A DNA stretch of 64,000 nucleotides from Candidatus Saccharimonadales bacterium (lineage in GTDB: Bacteria; Patescibacteriota; Saccharimonadia; Saccharimonadales; OMJO01). Under the pieces are notes generated by a model. That model was not told the origin of the DNA. It worked only from the letters and a program-made list of their open reading frames with translations, and searched no databases. Where the stretch lies: NCBI GenBank assembly GCA_035480035.1, contig DATIID010000008.1, forward strand, positions 9,721 through 73,720. Direction: 5' to 3'. Below, in pieces: positions 6,228-49,863 of the stretch (positions are counted from its first letter, which is position 1; every line of letters begins with the position of its first letter). The position numbers and the translations under genes are program-made.

Positions 6228-6809
6228 TTAGTTAGTTTCGATAAGTTTGATGATGGCCGGAATTTTGGCGAAATCATCGATTAAAGTTTGGCGCATAGCA
6301 CCGTTATACAGTGCGGCCGCCGGATGGAATAGTGGCAAGTAGACTTGGCCCTTTAAGCGTTTAGGCTGGCCATGTACCGCTGAAATCTGCAGCTCCGGCA
6401 GAAAGCAATTTAAGCTATGTCGGCCGAGCGTAATGACGATTTTCGGCTGAATTATATCCAACTGAGCCTGAAGATAAGGTAAGAAAACTTCCTTTTCCTC
6501 CGGTAACGGATCGCGATTATTCGGTGGCCGATACTTTACGATATTGGTAATGTACACGTCTGAGCGCTTCAGTCCGATGGACTCGAGCATCTCGTTCAAG
6601 AATTTGCCAGCGGCTCCGACGAACGGTTTGCCCTGCTCATCCTCATTCTTGCCTGGTGCTTCACCGATTAGTACGATGTCAGCATCTGGATCGCCATCAC
6701 CAAAAACTAGTTGAGTGGCGGTCTTGGCCAGGTCTGGGCAGATATTATTTTTGATGATATCTGCCTTAATCTGATCAAGTAGATCTTGCTTAGTTTGTTT
6801 ACTTGCCAT
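6228..6809 (-). CDS. udg: uracil-DNA glycosylase, family 4
   Basis: GEAPGKNEDEQGKPFVGAAG (motif A) and FHPAAALYN (motif B). Confidence 0.9.
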   Translation of the reverse strand: MASKQTKQDLLDQIKADIIKNNICPDLAKTATQLVFGDGDPDADIVLIGEAPGKNEDEQGKPFVGAAGKFLNEMLESIGLKRSDVYITNIVKYRPPNNRDPLPEEKEVFLPYLQAQLDIIQPKIVITLGRHSLNCFLPELQISAVHGQPKRLKGQVYLPLFHPAAALYNGAMRQTLIDDFAKIPAIIKLIETN

Positions 6810-7008
6810 TTCGCTTAATTTGCACAGCTTTTATCAGAAATCTAGTGCTCAGGATTAGTAATAGGATGACAATGCCGTATTGGAATAGACTGCCGGTGTC
6901 GACAGCCCGCGTGAACATTAAATAGGCCAAAATTATGCCAATCACACCAGTTACGATGAGCGTTTTGGGGTCATCAGCTACTTGTTTAGTTGACGACAGC
7001 TTCGTCAC
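6799..7008 (-). CDS. small two-TM membrane protein (about 69 aa from the GTG; the ORF track starts at 7029)
   Basis: AAGGAG lies 5 nt upstream of the GTG at 7008. Two hydrophobic helices. It overlaps the pnp 3' end and the udg start. Confidence 0.5.
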   Translation of the reverse strand: MTKLSSTKQVADDPKTLIVTGVIGIILAYLMFTRAVDTGSLFQYGIVILLLILSTRFLIKAVQIKRNGK

Positions 7009-9139
7009 GATGACTCCTTTCTCGTTCAACGGCTTTCATGCTGAGCTGTAACCGGCCGCGATCATCAATGGCAACTAGTTTAACGGTTACTCGATCGCCT
7101 TCTTTGACCACATCGCTGGGTTTTTCAACCCGTTCTTCCTTCATTTCACTAACGTGAACAAGGCCTTCTTTGCCCGGCATAATTTCCACAAAAGCACCAA
7201 AGTCCAGTACGCTCACTACCCGACAATTTTCGTAAATTTTGCCGACCTCTGGATCGTCCGTAATGTTTTTTATCCATTGGATAGCTCCGTCGATTGATTT
7301 CTTGTCAGGGCTAGCAATGAAGACCGTACCATCGTCTTTGATATCAATTTCAGCACCAGTTTCAGCAATGATTTTATTAATCATTTCGCCACCTTTGCCA
7401 ATAACTTCACGGATTTTGTCCGGATTAATACTGATAGACTCAACCCGTGGAGCATATTCGCTCATTTCCTTACGCGGTTCAGATAAGGTGTCGAGCATGC
7501 TTTTTAAGATGAAAGCGCGGCCTTCTTTGGCTCGCATCAAAGCTTCTTTAAGTACATCGACGCTTAGACCATGGACTTTCATGTCCATTTGAAGAGCGGT
7601 AATGCCCTTCTCGGTACCTGCTACCTTAAAGTCCATGTCACCGGCAAAATCTTCGGCGTCAGCAATGTCACTTAATATAAAGACTTTGTCGCCTTCCTTC
7701 ATTAGACCCATGGCAATACCACTGACTGGCCGTTTGAGCGGTACGCCAGCATCCATCAGCGCCAAACAGCTGGAACAAGTTGCTGCCATACTGGTGCTAC
7801 CATGTTGGCTCATGATTTCGGTGACACTACGAATGGCGTATGGAAACTCCACTTCAGTCGGTAAAACCGCTGAAATCGCCCGCTCAGCCAAATAACCATG
7901 ACCAATTTCGCGGCGACCGGGACTACCCAATCGTTTAATTTCACCAACGGTGTAACCAGGTGCATTGTAATGGTGGAAATAACGACGTTCGCCGTCTCTT
8001 TCCATGGTGTCAATCATTTGCGAATAGCTTAACGGCGCTAATGTAACGACGTTCATAGCTTGAGTCATGCCTCTCGTAAACAAACTTGAACCGTGTGCAC
8101 GAGGCAAAATACCGACTTCACTCGACAGTGGTCGAATCTCGTCTAATTTACGGCCATCCGGACGAACATTTTCTTCTAAAATACCATTACGAACATCTTT
8201 GTTAGCGGCCACAGCAAAGGCTTCTTGATAAGCATTTTTAACTTCAGCAAAACCGTCACCCAGTTTCTCCTCAAAGTGAGCCATTAGATCTTGGCGAAGC
8301 TCGTGCATTTTAGCGTGACGCTCAGCGTATGGAGCCCGAATGTTTTTACCAAGCTTGCCTTTAAAGTACTCATCAACCTCTTTTTGAATGTCGGCTGGTG
8401 GCAAATCAAGTTCGAACTCCTGAGCTGTAACACTAACTTTCTTAACCAGTTCTTGCTGTAACTTAATGGCTGGTTGGATAGCTTTGTGAGCAAACTCTAG
8501 GCCGGCTACTACTTCATCTTCGGTAGCTTCGTTGGCACCAGCTTCGACCATCATGATGGCTGATTCAGTACCGGCTACAAACAGATCTAATTTACTGTTA
8601 TCCAGCTCTTCCAGGCTCATAAAGGCAGTTGGGTTGCCGTCTTTTAGACCAACACGTACACCGGCGACTGGACCTTCAAATGGTGCGCCGGTTAGCATTA
8701 GTGCGGCGCTCATGGCAATCATGGCGATAGCATCTGGCCGAAAATTAGGATCCAGGCTCAAAACCGTAGCTACACCTTGAACTTCGTGTCGATAACCCTT
8801 TGGCCAGAGTGGTCGAATCGGTCGGTCAATTAACCTTCCAATCAGCACCGCATCGTCTGATGGTCGACCCTCACGCTTAATATAACGACTGCCGCTAATC
8901 TTGCCAGCCGCGTAAAATTTCTCTTCATAATCAATACTCAATGGAAAGTAGTCAAAACCTGCTAATGAGTTCTGACTAACTTCAGCTGTGCCGAGTACAA
9001 CGGCGTCGCCGTATTTAGCCATGACCATAGCTGTGGTTCGAAAACCAACACGGTTAACTTCTAGTGTCAGTGTCTTACCACAAAACTCAGTGGTTACACT
9101 GATTATTTCTTTACCTTCGGGATTTATGGTTTTTCCCAT
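6986..9139 (-). CDS. pnp: polyribonucleotide nucleotidyltransferase (PNPase)
   Basis: Two RNase PH domains plus KH and S1. I prefer the start at the ATG at 9139 (MGKTINPEG), which has GAAAGGAA upstream. The ORF track starts at 9160. Confidence 0.97.
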   Translation of the reverse strand: MGKTINPEGKEIISVTTEFCGKTLTLEVNRVGFRTTAMVMAKYGDAVVLGTAEVSQNSLAGFDYFPLSIDYEEKFYAAGKISGSRYIKREGRPSDDAVLIGRLIDRPIRPLWPKGYRHEVQGVATVLSLDPNFRPDAIAMIAMSAALMLTGAPFEGPVAGVRVGLKDGNPTAFMSLEELDNSKLDLFVAGTESAIMMVEAGANEATEDEVVAGLEFAHKAIQPAIKLQQELVKKVSVTAQEFELDLPPADIQKEVDEYFKGKLGKNIRAPYAERHAKMHELRQDLMAHFEEKLGDGFAEVKNAYQEAFAVAANKDVRNGILEENVRPDGRKLDEIRPLSSEVGILPRAHGSSLFTRGMTQAMNVVTLAPLSYSQMIDTMERDGERRYFHHYNAPGYTVGEIKRLGSPGRREIGHGYLAERAISAVLPTEVEFPYAIRSVTEIMSQHGSTSMAATCSSCLALMDAGVPLKRPVSGIAMGLMKEGDKVFILSDIADAEDFAGDMDFKVAGTEKGITALQMDMKVHGLSVDVLKEALMRAKEGRAFILKSMLDTLSEPRKEMSEYAPRVESISINPDKIREVIGKGGEMINKIIAETGAEIDIKDDGTVFIASPDKKSIDGAIQWIKNITDDPEVGKIYENCRVVSVLDFGAFVEIMPGKEGLVHVSEMKEERVEKPSDVVKEGDRVTVKLVAIDDRGRLQLSMKAVERERSHRDEAVVN

Positions 9140-19201: not shown

Positions 19202-19519
19202 CTAGGTTGACTCTTCCACCCTTATCAGAAAAATCCGATCTTCAAAACCACCTCGGCTAACGGCCCTCTCTTGTCGAACAGATTCCAAATGTTCACTGTT
19301 AAATCCATAAGCTACACTGATAGCGCCTATAACCTCTTGGACATCAGCTAGTTCTAACATGTTAGGATTATCTTTAAACTCCCGACTTTCTTCTTCTAGC
19401 TTATCTAATAAAGCTTGCTTATATTCATCTTTATTAAGTACCCGAGTAACAGGAGTATGGCCATCCGCTTCAATAATTTCAGGTATTCTGTCTCGAACTA
19501 ATTTGCCGTATTCTGTCAT
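19202..19519 (-). CDS. MazG-superfamily house-cleaning NTP pyrophosphohydrolase-like protein
   Basis: KLVRDRIPEII N-terminus and the E-rich helix pair LEEESREF...ELADVQEV, typical of this small MazG-like family. Its start overlaps the upstream stop (ATGA). Confidence 0.75.
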   Translation of the reverse strand: MTEYGKLVRDRIPEIIEADGHTPVTRVLNKDEYKQALLDKLEEESREFKDNPNMLELADVQEVIGAISVAYGFNSEHLESVRQERAVSRGGFEDRIFLIRVEEST

Positions 19520-20043
19520 AACAAAAAGGCTTTGCCGGTGTCGATCTCTTCTTTGACGGTGTCCATCAGCAATTTATTATTGAGCTTTAATTCTTGCCCA
19601 CCGCCGTTGATAACAATGTTTATCCATTTGTGCCCGGGATTTTCCTGCATTTCATAGGGCACTTTTTTATCATCCAAAATCAGCCGCGCGGCATCAAAAT
19701 TTGGAAACAAAAATTCGGCGTGTTCGAAACCGACGACGTCTTTGCCAGCTTTTTCAGGCCGTGGTTCCATAATCTCGACCCAACTAACTTCGCCAAAGCG
19801 ACCAATGTTGATTGAGCCATTAATCTGGACACTAGCCAACCGGCGTTTGTTCATAATAACAGATGTGATCTGGAAAGAGTGCGGCCTGAAAAGCTCAATA
19901 AGTCGGGCGAAATCGGCGCCATCCTTGCCCTTAATAGCCACGTGATCGGGCTTGTTAAACCATTCTTCAGGCAATTGATGAAGAGCCACAAACTTATTTA
20001 GCGCCCCGACATAGCTTTTGATTTGTTCTAAAAACTGCTCCAC
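19516..20043 (-). CDS. VOC-fold YecM-like protein (paralog 1)
   Basis: PDHVAIK...WVEIMEPRPEKAGKDVVGFEHAEFLFP parallels E. coli YecM (DHISLR...VELPWPGEKRYPHEGWEHIEIVLP). Confidence 0.65.
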   Translation of the reverse strand: MEQFLEQIKSYVGALNKFVALHQLPEEWFNKPDHVAIKGKDGADFARLIELFRPHSFQITSVIMNKRRLASVQINGSINIGRFGEVSWVEIMEPRPEKAGKDVVGFEHAEFLFPNFDAARLILDDKKVPYEMQENPGHKWINIVINGGGQELKLNNKLLMDTVKEEIDTGKAFLL

Positions 20044-20051
20044 ATTTCCCT

Positions 20052-20573
20052 CTAAATTCTCGTTGCCTTACGCATCGCCATTTCGTCCCAAACAATATTT
20101 TGGGTGGCTCTACTTGTCAATTTTACCTCTCGATCGTTACCAAAGCCAACCTCAATATAACTGCCAAAATCATGCTTACGTTTAGTAAACGGTATTTCTT
20201 TTTCGGTTAATTCGTCTTTGGTTTTGTCATAATCAACTCGGTAAAAGCCGACGTGATCTAAACCAATGCGATCCTGCCCCTTTGACTTTGGTTTTGGCTC
20301 TGAAATCCTCACCCAATCAATTGGGCCGAATGGCGGCAGAGCTATAGTGCCGAGCAATTCAGCTGTGGCAACCAATCGATCGTCACGTCTGACGGCGGTT
20401 ATCTCGTGTGACATCGGCCGAAATTTCTCAATTAACTTATTGAAATCATCTTCATCGGCCGCTTTTAAGGCAAGGTAATCCGGCATACGGTTGAAAACTT
20501 TTAGGCCAGTCTGGTGGCGAAAATCATTCAGTTCTTGAGCATAATCACCTAATTGTAGCTCTAGCTCTTTCAT
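20052..20573 (-). CDS. VOC-fold YecM-like protein (paralog 2; ORF track starts at the TTG at 20612)
   Basis: PDYLALK...WVRISEPKPKSKGQDRIGLDHVGFY aligns residue for residue with paralog 1. The ATG at 20573 gives the same N-terminal length. Confidence 0.65.
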   Translation of the reverse strand: MKELELQLGDYAQELNDFRHQTGLKVFNRMPDYLALKAADEDDFNKLIEKFRPMSHEITAVRRDDRLVATAELLGTIALPPFGPIDWVRISEPKPKSKGQDRIGLDHVGFYRVDYDKTKDELTEKEIPFTKRKHDFGSYIEVGFGNDREVKLTSRATQNIVWDEMAMRKATRI

Positions 20574-20618
20574 AGTTAACTCATAATAACACCTGTAAAA
20601 CCGACTAACCAAAAGCGC

Positions 20619-21185
20619 TTATTTGAAAATTTCTTCAAGTAGTTCCGGAAATTCCGGCGTTTTCATAGTACCAATTGTAAAATGGCCGTAATCGTGAAAA
20701 ATTCGGACATCCAAATTCGGTATTTCGGCTTTTAACTTTTTAAGCGAAGTCTGCATCTCTTCTTTGTCATTATCGGAGTGAAAAACAATTAAACTTTGAG
20801 TGCGTTTAACAAAGTCGGGGTCAATTTTAAAGTCAAAGAAATCTTTATCGCTTCTTTCGACATCAATCCAGGGAGCTACCAGCACAACTTTGCCAACCTT
20901 TAGTTTGGGATGTTCACTGAGATAGCGTACCCAGAAACCGCCGCCGCAACTGTGCCCTACTAAAATGGTTTCGGGCCCAATTTCAAACCGCTCGACTTCT
21001 TTAACCCACTCTTTCCAAACCGGTTGAAACGAAAACGGCACTTCGGGCGTAACCGCTGCAATGTCATGTTTAAGTAATTGGCTTTGTAGCCATGGCAGCC
21101 AGTGTGAGTTGCTCATACTCGGCCGATCCGGGTTGTAATATTCGGCTTTGCTTGGCCGCCCATGTAAAATAATCGCGTTTTTCAT
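20619..21185 (-). CDS. alpha/beta serine hydrolase, YdeN/RBBP9-like
   Basis: ILHGRP...WLPWL...LVGHSCGGGF nucleophile elbow, with the C-terminal His in HDYGHF. Confidence 0.75.
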   Translation of the reverse strand: MKNAIILHGRPSKAEYYNPDRPSMSNSHWLPWLQSQLLKHDIAAVTPEVPFSFQPVWKEWVKEVERFEIGPETILVGHSCGGGFWVRYLSEHPKLKVGKVVLVAPWIDVERSDKDFFDFKIDPDFVKRTQSLIVFHSDNDKEEMQTSLKKLKAEIPNLDVRIFHDYGHFTIGTMKTPEFPELLEEIFK

Positions 21186-21195
21186 TTCGCATTCA

Positions 21196-21771
21196 TCATA
21201 GCACTCTAATAATCTTATGGCGTGATAATAAAACTACAGTAAATATAAGATTTATGACGATTAAATATAAGGGGCTTGCTATAGCTGTAATTCTTGTACT
21301 AGTTGCTGCAAAAGACGCAAACACTGCACCTAGACCGGATAACGCAAATGTAATCCATGTTTCTTCATATGGTCTTTGCCAGGCATGTTTTAGTGTTGGC
21401 ATTGAGCCGATTAAGTCGATTGTTATACTAGCTAGCACAGCAATGGCTGGTGAGTTGAAAATGAACCACAAAATTAGACCAACTATTGCACCAAATTGAC
21501 ATGCAATATCAAACAACGCAAATTCTTTATTGCCGTATTTCAGACCCAAAATCACAACTGCTAGGCACTCAACGCTAGCTGATAAAGACAAAATTCCAGC
21601 TGCATATTGATGATCGCTTAAAGATGCTGCAGCTGAAATTCCACCTAATAAAGCCCAAGTAAACCACGAAACCACACGCGGTTTCGTCTTTCTTTTCAAA
21701 ATATCAACAATGTAAGGTAAAGTGGCCGAAATAGTAATAATACTACTGAGAATAATTAGAATTTGTCTCAT
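21196..21771 (-). CDS. polytopic membrane protein (about 6 TM), unknown function
   Basis: Hydrophobicity pattern only. The N-terminal LPYIVDILKRK is faintly PQ-loop-like. Confidence 0.6.
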   Translation of the reverse strand: MRQILIILSSIITISATLPYIVDILKRKTKPRVVSWFTWALLGGISAAASLSDHQYAAGILSLSASVECLAVVILGLKYGNKEFALFDIACQFGAIVGLILWFIFNSPAIAVLASITIDLIGSMPTLKHAWQRPYEETWITFALSGLGAVFASFAATSTRITAIASPLYLIVINLIFTVVLLSRHKIIRVL

Positions 21772-21794
21772 ATCGGACTAATCATAGCACTGGG

Positions 21795-22238
21795 TTAATT
21801 AAGCGCCCAGATGTTGTCGACGGCAAACACCGGCACAAGTAGCGGCATATCAAGCTGGCCTTCGTCAGGGTCATCGGGCTCAACCGGACGTAAAACTGTT
21901 ACATCAAATAAATCCAAACATAGTGAATTCAATGCCCGGCCAATGTGAACATAACGAACGGTCGAAAAGTGCCCTTTAACATCCATCTCACCAAATTGAA
22001 GACCGTCATAAACTTGCTCCTCAATCGTTAAGCCACGATTGAGGACAAAAGCGCTTGCGGTACGCAGTGCTACCCTGTTCATCCTGTAAGTTTCTTTCGG
22101 ATCGCCAAGTATATCAAGTGCATTTTGGGCAATTTCTTTGGCCATATCCGGTGGAGCGATAGTAATCGTTCTTTGGAGTTCCTGAGCCGTTCTTAAAACA
22201 TCATTAGCGATAAACAGTTTTGTTTCATCCACGTCCAT
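21795..22238 (-). CDS. hypothetical protein (147 aa)
   Basis: ORF with TATGAT 9 nt upstream of the ATG. No recognised family. Confidence 0.55.
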   Translation of the reverse strand: MDVDETKLFIANDVLRTAQELQRTITIAPPDMAKEIAQNALDILGDPKETYRMNRVALRTASAFVLNRGLTIEEQVYDGLQFGEMDVKGHFSTVRYVHIGRALNSLCLDLFDVTVLRPVEPDDPDEGQLDMPLLVPVFAVDNIWALN

Positions 22239-22253
22239 TTGCTCTTAATCATA

Positions 22254-22940
22254 TCAGAATAAGATTTGTAGAATTTGGGTATCGGGAGTTTGCTGATTGG
22301 CTAAATCATAAACAGTATTGACGTATCTATAGCCATTATTGACCATTTGACCGAACATGTAGCCTCTGTCGAGGCTCAAAGTCTCTGGGTTAATCGGATT
22401 CAATGCTTGCGGCTTATCACTGGGGTGACGGTACATCAATAGCCCAGCCAGTGCCACTTCTCGGTCACTCGTTAAAATAGCACTGACATGCCCGGGATTT
22501 GCCTCATTAATATTCTGGTATAACATCATGTCGCCCAAAGACGGTACTAAATGGCGCCTGTGCATGTGCCTAAATGGACCTTGACGCTTCTCAAAGACTT
22601 GATAGGTTTCAAAATCAACCAGAGCTTCGTCTGGAGCTTGATCCTCTGAGCTTTCCGGATGTGAGTGAAGCGTAAAAAGTATATCATCACGCATATGGTC
22701 GTCTTGATCATGAATGATTGTCTTCATTTCAAGTCTCTTAACCAGTTCACCGTCAAAATCTCCCCAATAATCACCGTATACTAATTCTGAAATTCTAAAA
22801 CCTAAACCCAATGAATAAACTGCAAAACCAGCCTCCATTTCGGCCTCTATGGTATGGTTAGCCACTTTGTGTAAGCTATCACCAAATTCTGGTGATTCAA
22901 CCAACTCAATAAGTAACTCTGGGTTCTCAAAGCTCGACAT
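22254..22940 (-). CDS. hypothetical protein, possibly a JAB/MPN-like metalloprotease fold with an insertion
   Basis: EAEMEAGFAVY, then LHSHPE, then VPSLGDMMLY, resembling E...HSHP...PSxxD but with about 37 aa inserted. TATAAT lies 8 nt upstream of the ATG. Confidence 0.55.
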   Translation of the reverse strand: MSSFENPELLIELVESPEFGDSLHKVANHTIEAEMEAGFAVYSLGLGFRISELVYGDYWGDFDGELVKRLEMKTIIHDQDDHMRDDILFTLHSHPESSEDQAPDEALVDFETYQVFEKRQGPFRHMHRRHLVPSLGDMMLYQNINEANPGHVSAILTSDREVALAGLLMYRHPSDKPQALNPINPETLSLDRGYMFGQMVNNGYRYVNTVYDLANQQTPDTQILQILF

Positions 22941-24835: not shown

Positions 24836-27484
24836 TCAAAGTTCGCCCCAGTTTTTGCCAGTTGAGGCGTCGACGTCGAGTTTGACTGGTAGTTTATAGA
24901 CGGCTTCCATAGTTTCTTTCAGCATTTTTGCGGTATCTTCGGCCTTATCTTCTGGGCATTCGACAATTAAAGAGTCGTGGATTTGCAGTAAAATCTTGCA
25001 ATCATCACTCTGTAACTTTTTATAAACATCAATCATCGCCATTTTCATCAGGTCGGCTTCGGTACCTTGAATCGGCATATTTATTGCTTGGCGGTAAGCG
25101 GCCTCGCGAACCATGAAGTTGGACGAGTGAATGTCCGGGGTTGGCCGACGACGACCAAACAAAGTCTCGACATAGCCATCCTTTTCGGCCTTTTCACGCA
25201 AATGCTTCATGTAGTCAAGCAAAGGTTTACGCAGTTCAAAATATTTATCAATAAAAGCTTTAGCGGCAGCCATGGTCATGCCAGTCGCCACACTCAAACC
25301 ATGCGGGCTCATGCCATAAATTACGCCAAAATTAATCACCTTGGCGTCGCGGCGCATCTGTTTGGTAACTTCGTCTGGGTCACGATTGTAAACCTGGGCC
25401 GCTGTCATAGTGTGGACATCTACCCCGTCATTAAACATCTTGATTAACTCTTCGTCGTTAGCCAAATAAGCCGCTAAGCGTAGTTCGAACTGGTTGTAGT
25501 CAGCGCTGACTAGCATCTTGCCAGGGCTAGCCACAAAAGCCGTACGGATTTGCTTGCCAAGTTCAGTGCGCACCGGAATGTTTTGCAGGTTCGGATCATT
25601 ACTGCTTAACCGGCCTGTTGGCGCCACGGCAATATCGTAAGTGGTGTGCACCCTGGAATTTTCGTCAATCTGTTGTGGCAAAGTATCGACATAGGTGTTT
25701 TTGAGTTTGGTGTATTCGCGATATTCGGTAATCAAATTAATAATCGGGTGGGATTCCCGTAGTTTATCCAGCTCAGTGGCCGCTGTTGAGTAACCAGTTT
25801 TGCCTTTTTTAATCGACTTGGTATCAAGGTTTAGTTTGTTAAACAAAATATCAGCCAACTGGACTGGACTGCTGATGTTGAATTCTTGATTAGCATGCCC
25901 ATAAACCTTCTGTTCGATATCGCTGATTTGGTCAGCCAGCTGTTCACCCATAATCTCGAGATAACCACCGTCCAATCGAATGCCCTCTTTTTCCATGTCG
26001 GCAATTACTGGAATAACCGGCCATTCAATGTCTTTGGCTAATTTAGCCAGCTTAGGGATGACTTTAAGCTCTTCAGTTTGTTTCTTATATAAAGAATTAA
26101 TGACGGAGATAATTTCTGGTTCGAGGCCAATTAACTCAGTGCCGTCAAGTTCTTCAAAGCCAGCACCCTCGTAGCCAATTTCGACTTGGGCAAGTTCAGT
26201 TAAATTCTGCTCCCGGCGTAGTGAATTAAGTAGAAACGAGCCAATTTGAACATCATGTTCGACTGGCGGCATGTCCAAATCAAGCTCAATAAACAATTGA
26301 AGCGTTGATTTGACATCATAGCCGATTAACGACTTGTCTTTTAATGCAGTCTTTAGCGTTTGAGCAGCCGCCTGGTGGTCGATACTGGCTAGATCAATTA
26401 TAAAAACCCGCTTTTTCGGCTCGACGCTTAACGCAATTACCAGCGGATCTTTGCCGTGTTTACCAGCCGTGCGGCTATGGACAAAAACTTTGTCAGAGCC
26501 CGATAAGTCTAGTTGCTTGAGTTTATCAGCGGAATTTATATAAACGTTTTGGCCTAGATTATCAGGTTTAAATGAACTGTGATCGTCGGCTGGTTCCTGA
26601 ACTTTCATGATTTCAGGAAGTTGTCGTACAAGGCTACGAAATTCCAGTCGCTGTAATATATCGCGGATTTCTTCGGGGTTAGCTTTGCTGCCATCAACTT
26701 CCTTGAGATTAAGTTTGATCGGCGCGTCAGTCCAAATAGCACCTAGTTTTTTACTTAAATAAGCCAGGTCTTTGCCGGCCTCGAGTTTCTTGCGAGTAGA
26801 TTCTTTAGTCAATTCAAGATTGTCATAGACACCATCAAGAGTTTTGAACTCTTTTAGTAGTTCAATGGCGCCTTTTTCGCCAATGCCGGGTACGCCTGGA
26901 ATGTTATCTGAGCTGTCACCTTTTAAAGCTTTCAGGTCTAGAAATTGTTCTGGCGTAATGCCATATTTCAGGATAAAAGTTTCCGGACGAAACAGCTCGA
27001 TGTTGCTCAAACCCTTTTTCAGTGCATAGACGTGAACAAGTGGGTGAACTAGTTGCAGCATGTCTAAATCAGAGGTGACTAGTTGAGTCTCGATGCCCTT
27101 TTTTGTAGCTTGTAGTGCGAGTGTGCCCATAATGTCGTCGGCCTCATAATCGTCCAGCTCATAGAGTGGCCAGCCAAACGCTTGAAGCAATTCATGTAAA
27201 ATTGGCACTTGCTCGTAAAAGTCTGGTGGCGCCGGCTTGCGTCCAGCTTTATATTCCGGATAGAGCTTGAGTCGCTTGCGAATATTGGTTTTCGGTTTGT
27301 CCCAGGCTACACACACGTAATCCGGCTTTAGCCGTCGAAGTACTTCCAACGCCATGGTCGCAAAACCAAACACGCCGCCGGTTGGCTTGCCATCATTTGT
27401 ACTCAAATTGGGCATGGCATAATAGCCACGGTAAAAGACTGATTTTCCGTCGATAATAGCTAGTTTTTTATGCTCCGCCATCAC
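24836..27484 (-). CDS. polA: DNA polymerase I
   Basis: 5'-nuclease domain, then a 3'-5' exonuclease-like domain, then the family A polymerase motifs (DYNQFELR, RRDAKVINFGVIYG, QIHDSLIVE). Confidence 0.97.
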   Translation of the reverse strand: MMAEHKKLAIIDGKSVFYRGYYAMPNLSTNDGKPTGGVFGFATMALEVLRRLKPDYVCVAWDKPKTNIRKRLKLYPEYKAGRKPAPPDFYEQVPILHELLQAFGWPLYELDDYEADDIMGTLALQATKKGIETQLVTSDLDMLQLVHPLVHVYALKKGLSNIELFRPETFILKYGITPEQFLDLKALKGDSSDNIPGVPGIGEKGAIELLKEFKTLDGVYDNLELTKESTRKKLEAGKDLAYLSKKLGAIWTDAPIKLNLKEVDGSKANPEEIRDILQRLEFRSLVRQLPEIMKVQEPADDHSSFKPDNLGQNVYINSADKLKQLDLSGSDKVFVHSRTAGKHGKDPLVIALSVEPKKRVFIIDLASIDHQAAAQTLKTALKDKSLIGYDVKSTLQLFIELDLDMPPVEHDVQIGSFLLNSLRREQNLTELAQVEIGYEGAGFEELDGTELIGLEPEIISVINSLYKKQTEELKVIPKLAKLAKDIEWPVIPVIADMEKEGIRLDGGYLEIMGEQLADQISDIEQKVYGHANQEFNISSPVQLADILFNKLNLDTKSIKKGKTGYSTAATELDKLRESHPIINLITEYREYTKLKNTYVDTLPQQIDENSRVHTTYDIAVAPTGRLSSNDPNLQNIPVRTELGKQIRTAFVASPGKMLVSADYNQFELRLAAYLANDEELIKMFNDGVDVHTMTAAQVYNRDPDEVTKQMRRDAKVINFGVIYGMSPHGLSVATGMTMAAAKAFIDKYFELRKPLLDYMKHLREKAEKDGYVETLFGRRRPTPDIHSSNFMVREAAYRQAINMPIQGTEADLMKMAMIDVYKKLQSDDCKILLQIHDSLIVECPEDKAEDTAKMLKETMEAVYKLPVKLDVDASTGKNWGEL

Positions 27485-40300: not shown

Positions 40301-41959
40301 TTACATTTTTTCTGGGGCATTAATGCTTAATAAGCCTAGGCCGTTTTTCAAAACATCGGCGTAAGATTTTACTAGTTTGATTCGAATCGTTTGCCGCTTG
40401 TCGTCAATTACCCGATTTTTTTCGTAAAAATGATTGAAAGTTTGGGCTAGTTCATACAAATAGGTGCAGATGTGGTGCGGCATTAATTCATCAACGGCTT
40501 TGTCGACAACTTCGGTAAATTCGCTAATTTTACGAGTCAAACTACGTTCGTCAGCCTGCAAATCGGTTGCTTTAGCTTCACCCGCTTTGGCCTTAGCTAA
40601 AATCGAACAAGCTCGGGCGTGAGCGTACTGCAAATATGGCCCGCTATTTCCCTGTAAACTAACCGATTCGTCGGGATCGTAGATAATATCAGCGCCCATA
40701 CGTTGCTTTAAAAAGGCGTATTTGACGGCGCCGAGTTCTACAGCTTCATCAGATTGCTCGCGAACTTTTTGGTTGGCTTTAGCCGCCGCGTCTAATAGGT
40801 CTTGAGCCTTCAAAACATTGCCTTTGCGGCTACTCATCTTAGTACCGCCAGCCAGTTTAATCATACCGTGGGTTAAATGAATCGTATTTTGGACCAGTTC
40901 GGGTTCAAATTGTTCAATACTTTTAAGTACCACTTTCATGTATTCAACAATGTCATTGCCAGTAATAACCACTGATTTATCAAAGTGGTAATCTTGCCAC
41001 TTGGCCATGATTAGGCCAACATCTTTAGCTTCATAAGTCGGCAAGCCTTCGGAATTGATGAAAACTCGGGTGTGCAAATCATAGCGTTCACCATCGAACA
41101 CTACCGCGCCGTCACTTTGCTTGTAGACACCGCGTTTAAGCTGTTGTTTAACGACCTTCAGACCAATTGGCGCCGTCTCGCTCTCGGGGTAATACTTCTC
41201 AAATTTAGTTCCTAGCTGTTCATAAAATTCATTGAAATAATCATAACTCCACTGTCGACAGGTCCAGTAAATTTTGGCAAAGTCCGAAGTTTTATCGTGA
41301 CTATCAAACAAGTCGTAAACTCGTTTATTGATCGATACGATGGCCCGTCGGGCATCGTCATTGTCTTCGTAGACGTCGTTGCCCTCGACATAACGCTGGC
41401 TGAGCCAATCGGCCCGCTCAATACTGCTGACTTTGGCCAGCTCATTTGGATTTTCGCCACCCAGTTTTTGAATAATCGCCCACATCGACTTAGCCACGTG
41501 CAGGCCAACGTCACCGCCAAAGTTAACGCGGTGGACTTCGGCACCAGCCGTTTCGAGCAAATTGGCAATGGCATCACCAACTACACTTGTATACAAATGG
41601 CCGGCATGGAGAACCTTAAACGGGTTTGGATCGGAATATTCTGCTACAGCAACCTGGCCTTTAAGCGACTGAGCAATTTTTTGGTCTAAAGATTTAAGTA
41701 GTGACTCATCACTCAGCCAAATATTAATAAAACCGGGTCCGGCGACCTCTGTTTTTTTGATAGCTGGGGATTTAATCGAAGCCGATAATTTCTCAGCAAT
41801 GATGCGAGGGTTTTGGCCCAATTTTTGGCCAAGCTGGAGTGCAACGTTGGTAGCATAATCGCCAAATTGTTCATCCGGACGCGTTAGGACTGGTTCGATT
41901 TTGATATCGAACAAATCTTGGCAAGCCCGCGCAATCGCCTGTTCAATCTCTGTCTTCAC
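40301..41959 (-). CDS. argS: arginine--tRNA ligase
   Basis: Class I HIGH-type motif (NPFKVLHAGHLY), anticodon-binding DALR domain, terminal M. Confidence 0.97.
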   Translation of the reverse strand: MKTEIEQAIARACQDLFDIKIEPVLTRPDEQFGDYATNVALQLGQKLGQNPRIIAEKLSASIKSPAIKKTEVAGPGFINIWLSDESLLKSLDQKIAQSLKGQVAVAEYSDPNPFKVLHAGHLYTSVVGDAIANLLETAGAEVHRVNFGGDVGLHVAKSMWAIIQKLGGENPNELAKVSSIERADWLSQRYVEGNDVYEDNDDARRAIVSINKRVYDLFDSHDKTSDFAKIYWTCRQWSYDYFNEFYEQLGTKFEKYYPESETAPIGLKVVKQQLKRGVYKQSDGAVVFDGERYDLHTRVFINSEGLPTYEAKDVGLIMAKWQDYHFDKSVVITGNDIVEYMKVVLKSIEQFEPELVQNTIHLTHGMIKLAGGTKMSSRKGNVLKAQDLLDAAAKANQKVREQSDEAVELGAVKYAFLKQRMGADIIYDPDESVSLQGNSGPYLQYAHARACSILAKAKAGEAKATDLQADERSLTRKISEFTEVVDKAVDELMPHHICTYLYELAQTFNHFYEKNRVIDDKRQTIRIKLVKSYADVLKNGLGLLSINAPEKM

Positions 41960-41983: not shown

Positions 41984-42664
41984 TTAATCGCTTTTGATAG
42001 CTCGGACAAATTGCCAGGCCACCAAATAAACACTACCGATTAGCGCAAAAAAGGTAGCGGTGGTGACAAACGCTTGTGGATGGGCGCCTGGGTTAATGAT
42101 GCGATCCGATACATCAAACAAAATACCGGCTGGATTAACAATCACATCCCAGGTATTCCAACGTAAATAACGGCCTAAATAAATGGCAAAGCTCGAGGCA
42201 AACAAAGTTAGCCCAATCAATACGTAGGCAGTTCTGGCTTTGAGCCGCTTAACCAGCTGTTTATGAACCACAAACACGCTCGCCAAGCCGCTAACAAAGC
42301 CATTGAAGCTGAATGACAATAGCATAACCACGTCATATAGCACGGTAGCTTGACTTGATAATGGTAAGTGAATTAAATCAGTCGCCAGGTAAAAACTATT
42401 TGGTAAAAAACCTAACCATACGACAGTTAGCAGCATGGCTTGCCAGCTTAACCACGAATGATCGTTCAAATAAGTTTTTAAAATCATGGCAAAAAACAGT
42501 GCCAACCATGCTAAGAACAAATTCCAAACCAAAAAGCCAAAATCAGTTGAACTGTTGGCGACCATTTTTATTAGCAATAAGCCAATGCTAACAGCGTTAC
42601 TGATAATCAGAGCTGTCAGAATTCCACTGTATCGCCCATTCAATTTGGCGAATGCGCGCCCCAT
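41984..42664 (-). CDS. DUF1361-family integral membrane protein
   Basis: WNLFLAWLA and LGFLPNSFYLATDLIHL match the DUF1361 signature as I recall it. Confidence 0.65.
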   Translation of the reverse strand: MGRAFAKLNGRYSGILTALIISNAVSIGLLLIKMVANSSTDFGFLVWNLFLAWLALFFAMILKTYLNDHSWLSWQAMLLTVVWLGFLPNSFYLATDLIHLPLSSQATVLYDVVMLLSFSFNGFVSGLASVFVVHKQLVKRLKARTAYVLIGLTLFASSFAIYLGRYLRWNTWDVIVNPAGILFDVSDRIINPGAHPQAFVTTATFFALIGSVYLVAWQFVRAIKSD

Positions 42665-42707
42665 AACCGCTTAAGTATAGCATCTAACAGATTAGGCCAT
42701 AACATCG

Positions 42708-42713
42708 TATAAT
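42708..42713 (+). promoter_or_regulatory. TATAAT -10 box 6 nt upstream of the ATG at 42720 (leaderless geometry)
   Basis: cgTATAATataggcATG read directly. The -35 region is weak. Confidence 0.45.
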
Positions 42714-42719
42714 ATAGGC

Positions 42720-43346
42720 ATGCAAATACTGGATTCGATTCGTGATCTGGTCCGATCAGTTATGAAAAGCCTGGCTAAGGCTTTGAATAGTTTAACGGGT
42801 GGCAGTTTAAGCCCCAACACCGTAACGATTGTCGGGTTGTTGGCTCATTTACCGATTGCCTACTTGATAGCGACCCGGCATAATCTGCGAGCCGCTGTTC
42901 TATTGGTCATTTTTGGATTGTTTGATACTTTGGACGGCGAACTGGCACGTCTTCAGAAGCGTGATAGCGCTGCCGGCATGCTACTAGACGCCACGACTGA
43001 TCGATTCAAAGAAGTCATGCTCTACACTGGTGCCGCCTACGCCATTGCTGGCAGCGGTCGACCATTGATGGCCGGTTGGGCAGTGGTAGCTTGCGGGGCT
43101 AGCCTGTGCGTCAGTTACGTTAAGGCTAAGGGTGAAACCGCAGTTGCTAAAAGTCATTTGAGCGTTAGCGAAATCAACCGACTGTTTGCTGATGGCTTAA
43201 TGCGCTTTGAAGTGCGGATGACCATTTTGGTCATCGGCCTACTTAGTAATCGCATTATTTTAGCTATCGTAGTAATCGCTGTGTTTTCATCGCTCACTGC
43301 AATTAATCGCCTGGTAAATATAAGCACCAAGCTCAAAGATGTTTAA
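42720..43346 (+). CDS. CDP-alcohol phosphatidyltransferase family protein
   Basis: Complete D-x2-DG-x2-AR-x8-G-x3-D-x3-D motif (DTLDGELARLQKRDSAAGMLLDATTD). Multi-TM. Confidence 0.9.
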   Translation: MQILDSIRDLVRSVMKSLAKALNSLTGGSLSPNTVTIVGLLAHLPIAYLIATRHNLRAAVLLVIFGLFDTLDGELARLQKRDSAAGMLLDATTDRFKEVMLYTGAAYAIAGSGRPLMAGWAVVACGASLCVSYVKAKGETAVAKSHLSVSEINRLFADGLMRFEVRMTILVIGLLSNRIILAIVVIAVFSSLTAINRLVNISTKLKDV

Positions 43347-43992
43347 AGTCGACTTGCACACTCACTCCACGGCTTCGCCGGACGGTGGTATTTCAATTGA
43401 TCATTATCAAAAAGCGATTGACGAAAAATTACTCGATGTGGTCGCCATAACTGATCATAACCAGATAGAATTTGCGTTAAAGATTAAGAAACTACTGGGC
43501 GACCACGCGATTGTCGGTGAAGAAATTATGACAACCGAAGGTGAAATTATCGGCCTTTTCTTAAGTCAAATCATCCCGCCTGGCCTTAGCCCTCAGGAAA
43601 CAGTTCAGCAGATTAAGGCTCAAAAAGGCTTAGTTTATATTCCTCACCCATTCGAAACAATACGCCATGGTTTGCATCCGGAAATTATTGAAAGTTTAGT
43701 CGAGCAGATTGATATAATCGAAATTTATAATGGTCGGGCCTTCGCTCAAGACCGTAGTTCGCAAGCTGTGGTTTTTGCTAAACTCAACCAATTAATCGGC
43801 GTGGCCAGCAGTGACGCTCATGGTTATTTGGGTCTGGGCAAGACTTATACAGGGGTCAGCCATATGCCTGACAATGTTAATTTGCTTGAGCTCTTATCAA
43901 GTGGTACGCCAATTGTTAGCAACCCTGGTCTCCGCGAACTACTTTATCCAAAGTTTCATCGTCTAAGAAAAAGGATTAAAAAAGACAGATGA
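43339..43992 (+). CDS. PHP-domain metal-dependent phosphoesterase
   Basis: DLHTHS, ITDHN, GEEI, IPHPF and SSDAHG, the full set of PHP metal ligands. It overlaps the upstream stop by 8 nt. Confidence 0.85.
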   Translation: MFKVDLHTHSTASPDGGISIDHYQKAIDEKLLDVVAITDHNQIEFALKIKKLLGDHAIVGEEIMTTEGEIIGLFLSQIIPPGLSPQETVQQIKAQKGLVYIPHPFETIRHGLHPEIIESLVEQIDIIEIYNGRAFAQDRSSQAVVFAKLNQLIGVASSDAHGYLGLGKTYTGVSHMPDNVNLLELLSSGTPIVSNPGLRELLYPKFHRLRKRIKKDR

Positions 43993-44531
43993 ATAGTCTA
44001 TGGTCAGACATATTTTGGGCGTTTTGGTTTTTCTTGCCAGCCGGGGTGGCCAACATGACACCACCAATCGCAAACAAAATTCCCTTATTAGCCAAGTGGA
44101 ATACACCGATGGATTTTGGTAGATCATTTCGCGGCAAACGCATTTTTGGCGACAACAAACGGTGGCGCGGGCTAGTTTTCGGCACGCTCATGGCAGGTTT
44201 GGTCGGTGGTTTTGAATACTCGTACTTAGTGGCACTCGATGCCGGCCATTTAATCGCTACCTTCGTACTTTTAGGCATATTAATGGGGCTGGGTGCATTA
44301 ACAGGCGATGCTATCGCTAGCTTTTTTAAACGACAACTTAAGATTGATTCCGGTAAAAGCTGGTTCCCGTTTGATCAAACCGATTATATTATCGGTGGCA
44401 TTTTGTTTAGTTATCCGGTATTCCACTACACCGTCCGACAAATGGTACTTATTCTAAGTATTTATTTTGGCCTACATCTGTTAATTGCCTATATCGGCTA
44501 TTTGCTAAAGTTCAAAGACCGTCCGATTTAA
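43989..44531 (+). CDS. CDP-archaeol synthase (CarS, DUF46) family membrane cytidylyltransferase homolog
   Basis: TPMDFGRSFRGKRIFGDNKRWRG and GDAIASFFKRQL follow the CarS/DUF46 pattern, with about 5 TM helices. ATGA overlap with the PHP gene. Confidence 0.75.
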   Translation: MNSLWSDIFWAFWFFLPAGVANMTPPIANKIPLLAKWNTPMDFGRSFRGKRIFGDNKRWRGLVFGTLMAGLVGGFEYSYLVALDAGHLIATFVLLGILMGLGALTGDAIASFFKRQLKIDSGKSWFPFDQTDYIIGGILFSYPVFHYTVRQMVLILSIYFGLHLLIAYIGYLLKFKDRPI

Positions 44532-44974
44532 CAAATTTGCTTAGCTGGATGCTCGACGTAGCTTGGAACACCTTCTTCACTGCAAGCTTCGCTTAAGCGA
44601 GCGCCGTCAAAAGTTAGAACCAAGCTATTAGGATCATTTGGATCTTTTTGGCATTCCATCTCGCCCAGTTTGTTAACGCTGTCATCATTGTACAAATCAG
44701 GACTGGAATGATCGCGAATACCTAAACCTCTAGCGGCAAGTTTTTGATATTCCAGCAATTTGTAGGGATCGGTAGCAGATCGATAGTTAGGGCTAGAAGG
44801 ATCCGTGGTAACAGTGATGTCGCTGGCTAAACCATTACAAACCGTAACTTTGTTACCGCGACCACTACCAAAAGTAGTACAAGCCGTGGCGCCTAAACTC
44901 AAAAGGCCAACCATTGTCAACGCTTTGACTTTTTTCGCTACATTAGGGTTATCACTAAAAATTTCTGAATGCAT
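44528..44974 (-). CDS. probable secreted protein or lipoprotein (148 aa)
   Basis: GAGGTG Shine-Dalgarno. The signal-like segment ends in LGATAC, a possible lipobox. Four further Cys residues. Confidence 0.55.
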   Translation of the reverse strand: MHSEIFSDNPNVAKKVKALTMVGLLSLGATACTTFGSGRGNKVTVCNGLASDITVTTDPSSPNYRSATDPYKLLEYQKLAARGLGIRDHSSPDLYNDDSVNKLGEMECQKDPNDPNSLVLTFDGARLSEACSEEGVPSYVEHPAKQIC

Positions 44975-45027: not shown

Positions 45028-45759
45028 TTATTTTGATTCGGCTTTCACAAAACACTCTAGGCACAACATTGATTTCAGCATGTCGTCTGGCGTGTTTTTA
45101 ATCATGGCTTCAGTCTGTGACGGCATGGCTTTTAGGGCTTGGTATTTTTGGTCAATTACCCGCTCTGGCAAATCATAGGCAATATCACAATCTTTGGCCT
45201 TGCGGGTTGGTGGTTTGTCGATATTGAAGTAAATATCAAATTTCTTGTCGGCTTCGATCATGTATTTTTGGTAATGGTCTTCTTCTTCGATAGTGTGGTA
45301 CACCTTGATATCTTTGCCTTCTGTCGCTAAGTCCACCCATTTAGAGACAGTTTGGTGATCAGTATGGCCGGTAATGCCGTCTGGCCCAAAAGTCAATATG
45401 CTGTCGGGCTGATATTTTTCAATTAAGTCTTTGATTTTGGCGACAGCTTCCCTGGTCTGCACACAATTACATAAACCATCTTGGTAATTTAGCCAGTAAT
45501 GATCTGTAATACCAATCTTCTTCAAAGCAGCTTGCATTTCTTTAGCGCGAATTTCGCCAAGTTTGGCGGCTGGCCAACGGCTTTCGTCCTGCACGCCAGC
45601 CTCGCCTTTAGTGGCTGTGATACAGACAACCTGTTGGCCATTTTTAACAGCAGTGGCCATGATACCGGCCGATGTGAATGATTCGTCGTCCGGATGAGCC
45701 CAGACCGACATAATTGTGCCCAATTGTTTAATGTCGTCTGGCGAGGTAATGCGGGCCAT
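45028..45759 (-). CDS. PIG-L/LmbE family N-acetylglucosaminyl deacetylase
   Basis: VWAHPDDESF and GHTDH motifs. Confidence 0.85.
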   Translation of the reverse strand: MARITSPDDIKQLGTIMSVWAHPDDESFTSAGIMATAVKNGQQVVCITATKGEAGVQDESRWPAAKLGEIRAKEMQAALKKIGITDHYWLNYQDGLCNCVQTREAVAKIKDLIEKYQPDSILTFGPDGITGHTDHQTVSKWVDLATEGKDIKVYHTIEEEDHYQKYMIEADKKFDIYFNIDKPPTRKAKDCDIAYDLPERVIDQKYQALKAMPSQTEAMIKNTPDDMLKSMLCLECFVKAESK

Positions 45760-45762
45760 GAT

Positions 45763-46326
45763 CTAGCCAGCCTTCCGCCCTACCAATGCTAAAAATTTAG
45801 TTTGGAGTGTGGCCGATTCTGGTACATCAACGGGTTTGCCAAACAGTCCGCTTTTGGCAAACCGGTCTTTTCGTGGCAAGACATAATCGTACATGGTCTT
45901 TAATACTTCAGGTTCAAAAATCAGATTGCAATTAATACTTTGCCCAACGTCCCAACCATGAATCATCATGTCGCGAGCCATTTCATCGATATAGTCAAAC
46001 ATTGACACATCGCCATAAGACAAATGGGCAGTTGCTTTGGAATCAGCTTTTTCAACTGCCGCTAAAGCATTATGACTAGCCCGGTCCCAAGCGGCTTGAA
46101 TATCTTTGCCAAGTAAATCGCCGTCAAAACGGTCGCCAACTTCTTTTACAGTTTTACCTTCAGCAATTTCTGGTAGCCACATCAGTTCATAAACCATATG
46201 GCCAACCAGATCGTGCAAGTTCCAATCAGTGCACGGCGTGTCATTAGTTAATTGGTCGTCTTGCACCAGCCGAACGCAATGTTCGGCCTGTGATAATGAG
46301 TGACGAAATAACTCTTTGGGGTCCAT
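45763..46326 (-). CDS. DinB-fold, mycothiol-dependent maleylpyruvate-isomerase-N-terminal-domain family protein (TIGR03086-like)
   Basis: TPCTDWNLHDLVGHMV signature. Size and C-terminal pattern fit the actinobacterial TIGR03083/03086 group as I recall it. Confidence 0.7.
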   Translation of the reverse strand: MDPKELFRHSLSQAEHCVRLVQDDQLTNDTPCTDWNLHDLVGHMVYELMWLPEIAEGKTVKEVGDRFDGDLLGKDIQAAWDRASHNALAAVEKADSKATAHLSYGDVSMFDYIDEMARDMMIHGWDVGQSINCNLIFEPEVLKTMYDYVLPRKDRFAKSGLFGKPVDVPESATLQTKFLALVGRKAG

Positions 46327-48954: not shown

Positions 48955-49863
48955 GTGATGATTACTATGTCAGAAACTTTAGATCAATCGGCGTTCGCCG
49001 ACGAACTTAGACCAGCAGTAGAAAGATTGTACGATAGACATCTAGAAGTTGCCCGCCCATGGTCAGCTTACGATGTTATTGATTGGAGCCAAGCTGAAGG
49101 GTTTGGCGACAAGCCTTGGTCACCAAGTGACTATCCCTTAAATGAAGCTGCGCGAAGTTCTGTTGTTGTCAATCTATTAACTGAAGACAATGCTCCTTAT
49201 TACACCCATCTTATAAAGTCCGTAACCCCCAAAGACCATCCTCTCCAAACCTGGAATAATCAGTGGACGATGGAAGAAGGACAACACTCATACGCTATTA
49301 GAACATGGGCGCATTTATCACGAGCCGTTGATCCTGACGAATTGGAAGCTGGACGCAGAACTCAAATGGCAGGAGGTGTCGTCCCCCAACCTGAAACATT
49401 AGCCGATATGCTTGCTTACGTGCCCTTCCAAGAGAAAGCTACTCAAATAGCCCACAGTAACACTGGTAGCCATCTTCCTAGAGAAGATAAAACCGGTCGA
49501 AAGGTATTGGCATTGGTGGCGGGTGATGAAACGAAACACTACAATTTTTACCGCGATGTGGCAGGCTCAGCTATAGAAGTAGATCCTTCGGCTATGGTAA
49601 TCGCTATCTCCAGTCAAGTCAGGGGTTTCGCTATGCCCGGTACTGGCATCCCGGGATTCAAAGAGCATGCCGATAAAATTGCCAAGGCTGGCATTTACAA
49701 CTTGAGCCATTTCAAAGAAAAAGTTGTCGAACCGACCCTTGAAGCTTGGGACATAAAAAATGTCGAGGGGCTGAACGATGAAGCTGAAGTTGCGCGCGAT
49801 AAATTATTTGCGTTTGTCGAAAAAGTAGGCAGAGTTGCCACTCGACTGGGCCATACGTCTTAA
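48955..49863 (+). CDS. soluble acyl-ACP desaturase family di-iron protein (DesA-like)
   Basis: LLTEDNAPYY, MEEGQH (ExxH) and GDETKHYNFY (ExxH), the di-iron ligand pattern of PF03405. The start could instead be the ATG at 48958 or 48967. Confidence 0.85.
   Translation: MMITMSETLDQSAFADELRPAVERLYDRHLEVARPWSAYDVIDWSQAEGFGDKPWSPSDYPLNEAARSSVVVNLLTEDNAPYYTHLIKSVTPKDHPLQTWNNQWTMEEGQHSYAIRTWAHLSRAVDPDELEAGRRTQMAGGVVPQPETLADMLAYVPFQEKATQIAHSNTGSHLPREDKTGRKVLALVAGDETKHYNFYRDVAGSAIEVDPSAMVIAISSQVRGFAMPGTGIPGFKEHADKIAKAGIYNLSHFKEKVVEPTLEAWDIKNVEGLNDEAEVARDKLFAFVEKVGRVATRLGHTS

Follow-up and report, generated by a model that had tools for sequence, protein, structure and literature searches.

The 64-kb window analysed here, a stretch of a Candidatus Saccharimonadales metagenome-assembled genome (MAG), contains three chained open reading frames (ORFs) that code for a CDP-alcohol phosphotransferase, a PHP-family protein and a homologue of the archaeal CDP-archaeol synthase CarS, and that we predict to form an operon for phosphatidylinositol (PI) synthesis. 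The locus is laid out as follows:

42684-42713, plus strand: promoter-like site CTAACA, 18-nt spacer, TATAAT (-10 box at 42708-42713)
42720-43346, plus strand: ORF1, 208 aa, PF01066
43339-43992, plus strand: ORF2, 217 aa, PF02811 and PF13263 (PHP_C)
43989-44531, plus strand: ORF3, 180 aa, PF01864

ORF1 and ORF2 overlap by 8 nt (ATGTTTAA at 43339-43346) and ORF2 and ORF3 by 4 nt (ATGA at 43989-43992), exactly where a sequence-only reading of this DNA had placed them, and the TATAAT that it had noticed 6 nt ahead of the first ORF is confirmed at 42708-42713. The trio is one operon, translationally coupled. Because the -10 box ends 6 nt before the ATG of ORF1 and no Shine-Dalgarno sequence is seen before that codon, its transcript is probably leaderless. 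Leaderless-type starts are a genome-wide habit, enriched over control bins: a -10-like hexamer ends 4-12 nt before the start codon in 23 of the 61 window genes, ORF1 among them, and in 4-8 of 61 in the other 9-nt upstream bins, while about as many genes (24) carry a Shine-Dalgarno-like sequence instead. Recent horizontal transfer of the trio was considered and rejected, as its GC content (0.449) equals that of the window (0.444).

An alignment of the PHP protein, scanned over one genome per species, yielded 80 loci, whose ORFs were searched with profiles of the window proteins. The loci from Patescibacteria belong mostly to Saccharibacteria, plus Levybacteria and unclassified members. Among them, a CarS-like gene adjoins the PHP gene wherever the downstream flank is present (41/41) and the transferase gene is adjacent in 39 of 42, three species having the PHP-CarS pair only; the trio is conserved as an operon, a point that the sequence-only reading had left to a survey. 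In the 28 species loci with all genes on the same strand, the transferase-PHP and PHP-CarS junctions mostly measure -8 to +5 nt, and of the 11 Saccharibacteria loci examined, 8 (the window among them) have a perfect TATAAT 6-11 nt before the transferase start. Because of these tight junctions and the recurrence of TATAAT, the arrangement is beyond chance. Clustering of the neighbouring genes left these three as the only families common to the whole set.

One Saccharibacteria locus (L024, 6819-9313) shows the order CarS-transferase-PHP, followed by a second transferase paralogue. Three loci with a Saccharibacteria- or Levybacteria-type trio (L004, L007 and L032; 48-62% PHP identity) come from MAGs labelled Limnocylindria/Limnocylindrales or Gammaproteobacteria; their contigs are probably mis-binned. 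The cultured oral Saccharibacterium Southlakia was tried as a test of the trio and set aside. It codes for a lone, non-essential CDP-alcohol phosphotransferase, "CDP-archaeol" has no match in its annotation tables, and the proteins in which a PHP domain is matched are a 5'-3' exoribonuclease and DNA polymerase III alpha; for these reasons, its transposon sequencing has no bearing on the trio.

ORF3 is a member of the CarS family. It scores 112.5 bits against PF01864 (cut-off 22), its residues 10-178 align to residues 9-172 of the Aeropyrum pernix CarS (5GUF, E = 1.2e-14), a full-length likeness, and the motifs FLPAGxAN, PxD, GxxKxxRG, GALxGDxxxSFxKR and DQxD are invariant; NCBI annotates it as CDP-archaeol synthase. 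The hallmarks of CdsA, namely a full-length PF01148 match and the PROSITE PS01315 signature (S-x-[LIVMF]-K-R-x4-K-D-...-H-G-G-x-D-R-x-D), are both missing from ORF3, which matches PF01148 weakly and in part (26.6 bits, profile positions 169-235), and the signature occurs neither in the 64-kb window nor in 1.1 Mb of window plus loci. We predict that ORF3 is an integral-membrane CarS-like CTP:lipid-phosphate cytidylyltransferase. The pairing of the family with DgkB/YegS-type kinases in relatives, described below, and the lack of GGGPS, DGGGPS and isoprenoid genes among the window proteins scanned argue that it would act on phosphatidic acid (PA) and, as far as the 64 kb of this genome that were scanned can tell, in the place of CdsA.

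CTP-dependent lipid kinases, such as yeast Dgk1 and dolichol kinase, are also members of the CTP-transferase superfamily, and the weak PF01148-superfamily match would agree with ORF3 being an enzyme of that sort, making PA or polyprenyl phosphate while a CdsA encoded elsewhere supplied CDP-diacylglycerol. We consider this very improbable, given the full-length alignment to solved CarS with its motifs kept and the missing CdsA signature in the 1.1 Mb; moreover, in Levybacteria the CarS-like gene is immediately preceded by that of a DAGK_cat/YegS-type kinase, beside which a second kinase would be superfluous.

ORF1 scores 45.4 bits against PF01066 (Pfam cut-off 22) and carries the D1xxD2GxxAR...GxxxD3xxxD4 signature (TM2-TM3) of class I CDP-alcohol phosphotransferases. 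Across 22 homologues, D69, D72, G73, G86, D90 and D94 are invariant and A76 is kept in at least 90%; the window protein has R77. Its best NCBIfam models are those of archaetidylinositol phosphate (AIP) synthase (NF040950, 93.6 bits) and phosphatidylinositol phosphate (PIP) synthase (NF045883, 84.3 bits), with 61 bits against a BT1523-type model (cut-off 350). No PgsA model of NCBIfam matches it at E<=0.01, and its relatives in loci L071 and L033 reach 31-36 bits with the PgsA model versus 91-153 bits with the PIP and AIP synthase models. When the profile of the 22 homologues is used, the best solved relative is Mycobacterium tuberculosis PgsA1 (111 bits), followed by the M. kansasii and Renibacterium PIP synthases. 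In these enzymes, the phosphate of inositol phosphate is bound by two arginines (R153/R191 in RsPIPS, R155/R195 in MtPIPS) that every PIP synthase retains (Clarke et al., PMC4634129). R166 and R197 of the window protein align with MtPIPS R155 and R195 in the profile alignment and both are invariant in the family, so that ORF1 has the arginine pair that distinguishes the PIP synthase subfamily. It is predicted to be an integral-membrane class I CDP-alcohol phosphotransferase of the PIP synthase type. Because of this PIP synthase-type profile and the invariance of both arginines and the catalytic aspartates, its alcohol phosphate would most probably be L-myo-inositol-1-phosphate. Its product would be PIP, and a phosphatase would therefore be needed to reach PI.

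ORF2, encoded between the two membrane enzymes, has no transmembrane segment. It scores 29.9 bits against PF02811 (cut-off 26.4) and also matches PHP_C (PF13263), so that all three families named beforehand for the trio (PF01066, PF02811 and PF01864) are matched, and all the motifs quoted in the sequence-only reading are present. Ten candidate metal ligands (H7, H9, D15, H40, E61, E62, H103, H113, D159 and H161) are invariant in 29 homologues. An AlphaFold2 model (pLDDT 88.6) retrieves PHP structures with a Foldseek probability of 1.0 and query TM-scores of 0.60-0.71 for the top non-polymerase matches; ORF2 thus combines the metal-ligand set of the PHP superfamily (HxH, D, H, E, H, H, DxH) with its barrel fold. 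By fold, ORF2 comes closest to solved phosphoesterases of nucleotides or RNA, namely RNase AM and Cv1693; the structure of Cv1693 contains bound AMP and phosphate. As a single sequence ORF2 matches no solved structure, and its profile reaches 22.6 bits at best. Because no solved protein is close in sequence, we predict that it represents an uncharacterised PHP subfamily, to which the fold search gives a generic PHP assignment. Its C-terminal helix is strongly basic (9 K/R in the last 22 residues). Matches to this region by tblastn occur in almost every Patescibacteria locus and in only a part of the remaining loci; the helix may anchor the protein to the anionic membrane surface. From its operon position and from the fusion of its homologues to a glycosyltransferase family 4 (GT4) domain beside PIP synthase, detailed below, ORF2 is predicted to be a PIP 3-phosphatase (PIP -> PI). 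It matches PHP families only and has no homology to PgpA, the family of the known PIP phosphatase BT_1525; if it is a PIP phosphatase, it would be a non-homologous replacement of that PgpA-annotated enzyme.

Taken together, the three proteins suggest an operon that builds the PI head group on pre-existing diacylglycerol (PA -> CDP-diacylglycerol -> PIP -> PI), a reading to which we give a probability of roughly 60% and in which the substrate of every enzyme is a prediction. Where a lipid kinase is present, it would first convert diacylglycerol into PA. ORF3 would then turn CTP and PA into CDP-diacylglycerol and pyrophosphate, the job of CdsA elsewhere, and ORF1 would transfer the activated lipid to L-myo-inositol-1-phosphate, releasing PIP and CMP. 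The inositol phosphate would come from inositol-3-phosphate synthase (MIPS), widespread in Saccharimonadales. Finally the soluble PHP metallophosphatase, tethered to the membrane through the cationic helix at its C-terminus, would strip the ring phosphate to yield PI. The backbone would be scavenged from the host.

The gene context in relatives is consistent with this pathway. In the Levybacteria locus L039, MIPS lies beside the transferase gene, and a divergent PHP gene, a YegS/DgkB-type lipid kinase and CarS follow with overlaps of 4 nt each; this locus also has a candidate LysR-type regulator, assigned by sequence only and not scanned. A YegS/DgkB-type kinase also lies between PHP and CarS in L032, L033 and L037, MIPS adjoins the trio in L019 and L040 as well, and in the Saccharibacteria locus L020 (5625-7316, minus strand) a 563-aa fusion of a CDP-alcohol transferase with a diacylglycerol kinase catalytic domain stands beside the trio. 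MIPS is widespread in Saccharimonadales and highly conserved, the top 120 clusters being at least 84% identical to the L019 protein. Outside Patescibacteria, seven Thermoleophilia/Gaiellales loci (L055, L070, L071, L074, L077, L078 and L082) code for PIP synthase and MIPS with a 620-630-aa GT4::PHP fusion downstream, at about 6780-8700 in each 16-kb locus, and the only solved matches of its GT4 domain in a PDB search are PimA, which mannosylates PI. This fusion is a candidate two-step enzyme in Actinomycetota, which would convert PIP into PI and then into phosphatidylinositol monomannoside (PIM1). The Levybacteria and Thermoleophilia contexts (MIPS, kinase, GT4) therefore supply the steps missing from the trio, and the logic proposed in the sequence-only reading, activation, transfer and dephosphorylation by a PHP enzyme, is supported by both the conserved operon structure and these neighbourhoods. 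In Sporomusa, an LPG_synthase_TM gene precedes the PHP gene and a GT87 (PimE-family) gene comes after it; the PHP gene of an Ardenticatenaceae genome likewise follows an LPG_synthase_TM gene.

Several observations weigh against this PI pathway. Some of them concern the window and the two membrane enzymes. MIPS, a lipid kinase and a PimA-like gene are all missing from the 64 kb. ORF1 stays under the NCBIfam equivalog cut-offs (170 bits for NF045883, 180 bits for NF040950) and by the NCBI criterion would be a divergent relative of PIP synthases, not an equivalog; ORF3 reaches 138.3 bits with NF003114 (CDP-2,3-bis-(O-geranylgeranyl)-sn-glycerol synthase), just under the cut-off of 148. Purified archaeal CarS prefers digeranylgeranylglyceryl phosphate (DGGGP) over PA (review PMC9385802). 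Others concern the PHP protein. Its adjacency to CarS is more constant than that to the transferase, which could point to a role serving CarS. The PHP domains of Thermoleophilia are at least as distant from those of Patescibacteria as the Chloroflexi ones are, and the Chloroflexi homologues (33-43% identity) have mixed neighbours (ExoVII, PrsW, formyltransferase) with no inositol or lipid genes. In three Gemmatimonadota loci (L047, L075 and L080, PHP at about 8000), the PHP gene comes directly after coaE (dephospho-CoA kinase) or is read through from it, which suggests a different role there. Likewise, the GT4 partner in Thermoleophilia is weakly PimA-like (64 bits) and also gives weak matches to MshA models (33-60 bits, cut-off 462). 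We did not adopt the identification of this domain as PimA outright, PimA being its closest solved match and the MshA-model matches being weak too. The fusion may have an MshA2-type role, dephosphorylating N-acetylglucosamine (GlcNAc)-inositol-phosphate; whether the GT4 is PimA-like or MshA-like, the inositol-ring phosphate would be the one that the PHP domain removes. The whole PHP subfamily was also considered as a PI-pathway marker and rejected because of the heterogeneous Chloroflexi neighbours and of coaE in Gemmatimonadota. Since the homologues in both phyla have unrelated neighbours, a PI role of the PHP protein is lineage-specific at best.

These points bear first on what the phosphatase does. 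ORF3 and ORF1 might make PIP while the PHP protein hydrolyses the pyrophosphate released by ORF3, degrades CMP or another nucleotide by-product, or acts as a flux-regulating CDP-diacylglycerol/PA phosphohydrolase. The 41/41 adjacency to CarS against 39/42 to the transferase, the three species with the PHP-CarS pair only, the likeness of the fold to RNase AM and to AMP- and phosphate-bound Cv1693, and the position after coaE in Gemmatimonadota are all in its favour. We nevertheless regard it as unlikely: the Thermoleophilia PHP domain is fused to a GT4 (PimA its only solved match) beside PIP synthase and MIPS, and no CarS-like gene is found near these fusions; the PHP association therefore tracks the inositol branch, not CarS. 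In addition, a PIP route needs a phosphatase, and the conserved cluster offers no other candidate.

The missing MIPS and the sub-threshold score of ORF1 with PIP-synthase models could also fit a head group other than inositol. The acceptor of ORF1 would then be another alcohol phosphate, such as glycerol-3-phosphate, with the PHP protein as a PGP-type phosphatase yielding phosphatidylglycerol, a PgsA-PgpA logic that is the commonest bacterial pathway of such shape. This is improbable. ORF1 has no PgsA match at E<=0.01, its L071 and L033 relatives are far weaker on PgsA than on PIP/AIP models, both arginines that bind inositol phosphate are invariant, and MIPS, widespread in Saccharimonadales, is adjacent in three Patescibacteria and seven Thermoleophilia loci.

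As for the lipid, the score of ORF3, less than 10 bits from the archaeal CarS equivalog cut-off, and the higher scores of ORF1 and of the Levybacteria transferase with the archaetidylinositol phosphate model than with the bacterial PIP synthase model might indicate that ORF3 retains an archaeal substrate preference, the trio producing archaetidylinositol-type ether lipids from isoprenoid lipid phosphates, self-made or taken from archaea. We find this hardly credible, since no GGGPS, DGGGPS or isoprenoid genes occur among the scanned window proteins, the pathway is linked to DgkB/YegS-type kinases, and the hosts on which cultivated Saccharibacteria grow are Actinobacteria (PMC10633639), producers of acyl PI (PMC6031116). 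A bolder conjecture, and a long shot, is that the CarS-type enzyme retains an archaeal-style substrate range or has broadened it, so that inositol would be placed on any scavenged lipid phosphate, ester or isoprenoid ether, with the PHP protein as a shared PIP/AIP phosphatase; if true, the bacterial/archaeal lipid divide would be bridged naturally by an operon.

The acyl PI operon that we favour can be compared with several known systems. The PI pathway of mycobacteria and other actinobacteria (CdsA, PgsA1, a PIP phosphatase and PimA) follows the same chemistry through a PIP intermediate. Its PgsA1/PIP synthase is the closest to the ORF1 profile and shares with it the catalytic aspartates and both arginines, and in the Thermoleophilia relatives one cluster unites PIP synthase, MIPS and a GT4 that matches no solved protein but PimA, comparable to the mycobacterial pathway. 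In the trio, however, CDP-diacylglycerol would come from a CarS-family enzyme, not CdsA, the phosphatase candidate is a PHP protein, and the operon partners patA, pimA and Nudix are missing from the window. For mycobacteria and archaea, the enzyme converting PIP into PI has been described as "as-yet unidentified" or "long-sought" (PMC4634129; PMC9385802; bioRxiv 10.64898/2026.07.15.738315), and a mycobacterial candidate of the alpha/beta-hydrolase type, EphE, was proposed in July 2026 (bioRxiv 10.64898/2026.07.15.738315).

In Bacteroides thetaiotaomicron, MIPS, PIP synthase and PIP phosphatase are clustered (BT_1522-BT_1526), as shown genetically, and the PgpA-annotated BT_1525 is the only genetically assigned PIP phosphatase (PMC9246714). 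The trio and its relatives would follow the same MIPS/PIP synthase/phosphatase logic. Bacteroides also has an LPG_synthase-type neighbour (a BT_1521 homologue, PMC9246714), reminiscent of the LPG_synthase_TM genes by PHP in Sporomusa and Ardenticatenaceae, but its phosphatase is annotated as PgpA, not PHP, and its cluster has no CarS-like gene. The archaeal archaetidylinositol pathway (CarS, AIP synthase and AIP phosphatase) employs the same two enzyme families as ORF3 (PF01864) and ORF1 (best NCBIfam match AIP synthase), and its AIP phosphatase is likewise missing (PMC9385802). Unlike archaea, the bacterium carrying the trio has no visible ether-lipid genes, the context leads to diacylglycerol via DgkB/YegS-type kinases, and ORF1 and ORF3 both stay under the archaeal equivalog cut-offs. 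Finally, solved PHP phosphoesterases (RNase AM 7UG9/9ETK, Cv1693 2YB1, TM0559 2ANU and histidinol-phosphate phosphatase) share the fold and the metal-binding His/Asp/Glu set of ORF2. At 217 aa, ORF2 is the shorter protein; it ends in a cationic helix specific to Patescibacteria and lies in a lipid operon, and the sequence similarity is marginal; none of these relatives is reported to act on a lipid.

Re-heading of scavenged lipids has already been proposed for a soil Saccharibacterium, "T. rhizospherense", predicted to convert scavenged diacylglycerol-3-phosphate into CDP-diacylglycerol, PI and PI mannosides (Starr et al. 2018, PMC6031116). In the available portion of that article, the transferase is a one-step PI synthase and the activating enzyme a generic phosphatidate cytidylyltransferase, and that portion mentions no PIP intermediate, PHP phosphatase, CarS family or operon. 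A 2024 perspective states that the mechanisms of lipid uptake and breakdown in Patescibacteria are not yet identified. A search of the literature turned up nothing specific on CarS in Patescibacteria or on a PHP-type PIP phosphatase, nor was a paper on the operon found; automatic annotations of its parts exist, and the architecture, with CarS for CdsA and a PHP phosphatase, appears to be undescribed. The operon would amount to a known PI pathway with two non-orthologous enzyme replacements. Together with the Thermoleophilia GT4::PHP fusion, it nominates an unrelated enzyme family, PHP, for the missing PIP phosphatase. Patescibacteria lack lipid synthesis; if true, such a compact route from diacylglycerol or PA to PI, which in Levybacteria would span five clustered genes, would mean that they rebuild their head groups themselves and depend on the host for no more than the acyl backbone. 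A CarS-family enzyme would also gain its first functional role in bacteria, with a bearing on how sharp the CdsA/CarS lipid divide is.

The rest of the window consists of ordinary bacterial housekeeping genes, with some other features worth recording:

19516-22940, minus strand: six consecutive small ORFs (147-228 aa), mostly with no family match
24836-27484, minus strand: gene with a leaderless-type start (-10-like hexamer upstream)
40301-41959, minus strand: gene with a leaderless-type start (-10-like hexamer upstream)
41984-42664, minus strand: DUF1361 integral membrane protein, divergent from the trio, 55 bp from ORF1; leaderless-type start (-10-like hexamer upstream)
44528-44974, minus strand: 148-aa ORF, no family match, N-terminus lipoprotein-like (LSLGATAC)
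45028-45759 and 45763-46326, minus strand: PIG-L family deacetylase (GlcNAc-PI/MshB/BshB family) and adjoining DinB/MDMPI_N protein, just downstream of the trio
48955-49863, plus strand: acyl-ACP desaturase family gene (PF03405, 180 bits)

In 22 loci, all of the Saccharibacteria type, the DUF1361 gene lies no more than about 2 kb upstream of the trio. It is absent in Levybacteria, and its proximity may reflect lineage synteny rather than a functional link. On the other side, the 148-aa ORF, found only in contigs of this organism, converges on ORF3, and their stop codons overlap (TTAA, 44528-44531). Twelve Saccharibacteria loci and the Levybacteria locus L033 have a PIG-L gene next to the trio, and the enzyme could act on a GlcNAc-inositol compound (a glucosaminyl-PI-type glycolipid or a mycothiol-related molecule). 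The statement that the window holds no fatty-acid synthesis genes, made in the sequence-only reading, is nearly true, the acyl-ACP desaturase family gene being the departure from it. Among the fetched loci, this gene occurs only on the contig of this genome, in a lineage thought to be devoid of fatty-acid synthesis. Within the run of six small ORFs, one is of the serine-hydrolase/alpha-beta-hydrolase type and another is weakly YecM-like, and in three TATGAT precedes the start codon by 9 nt.

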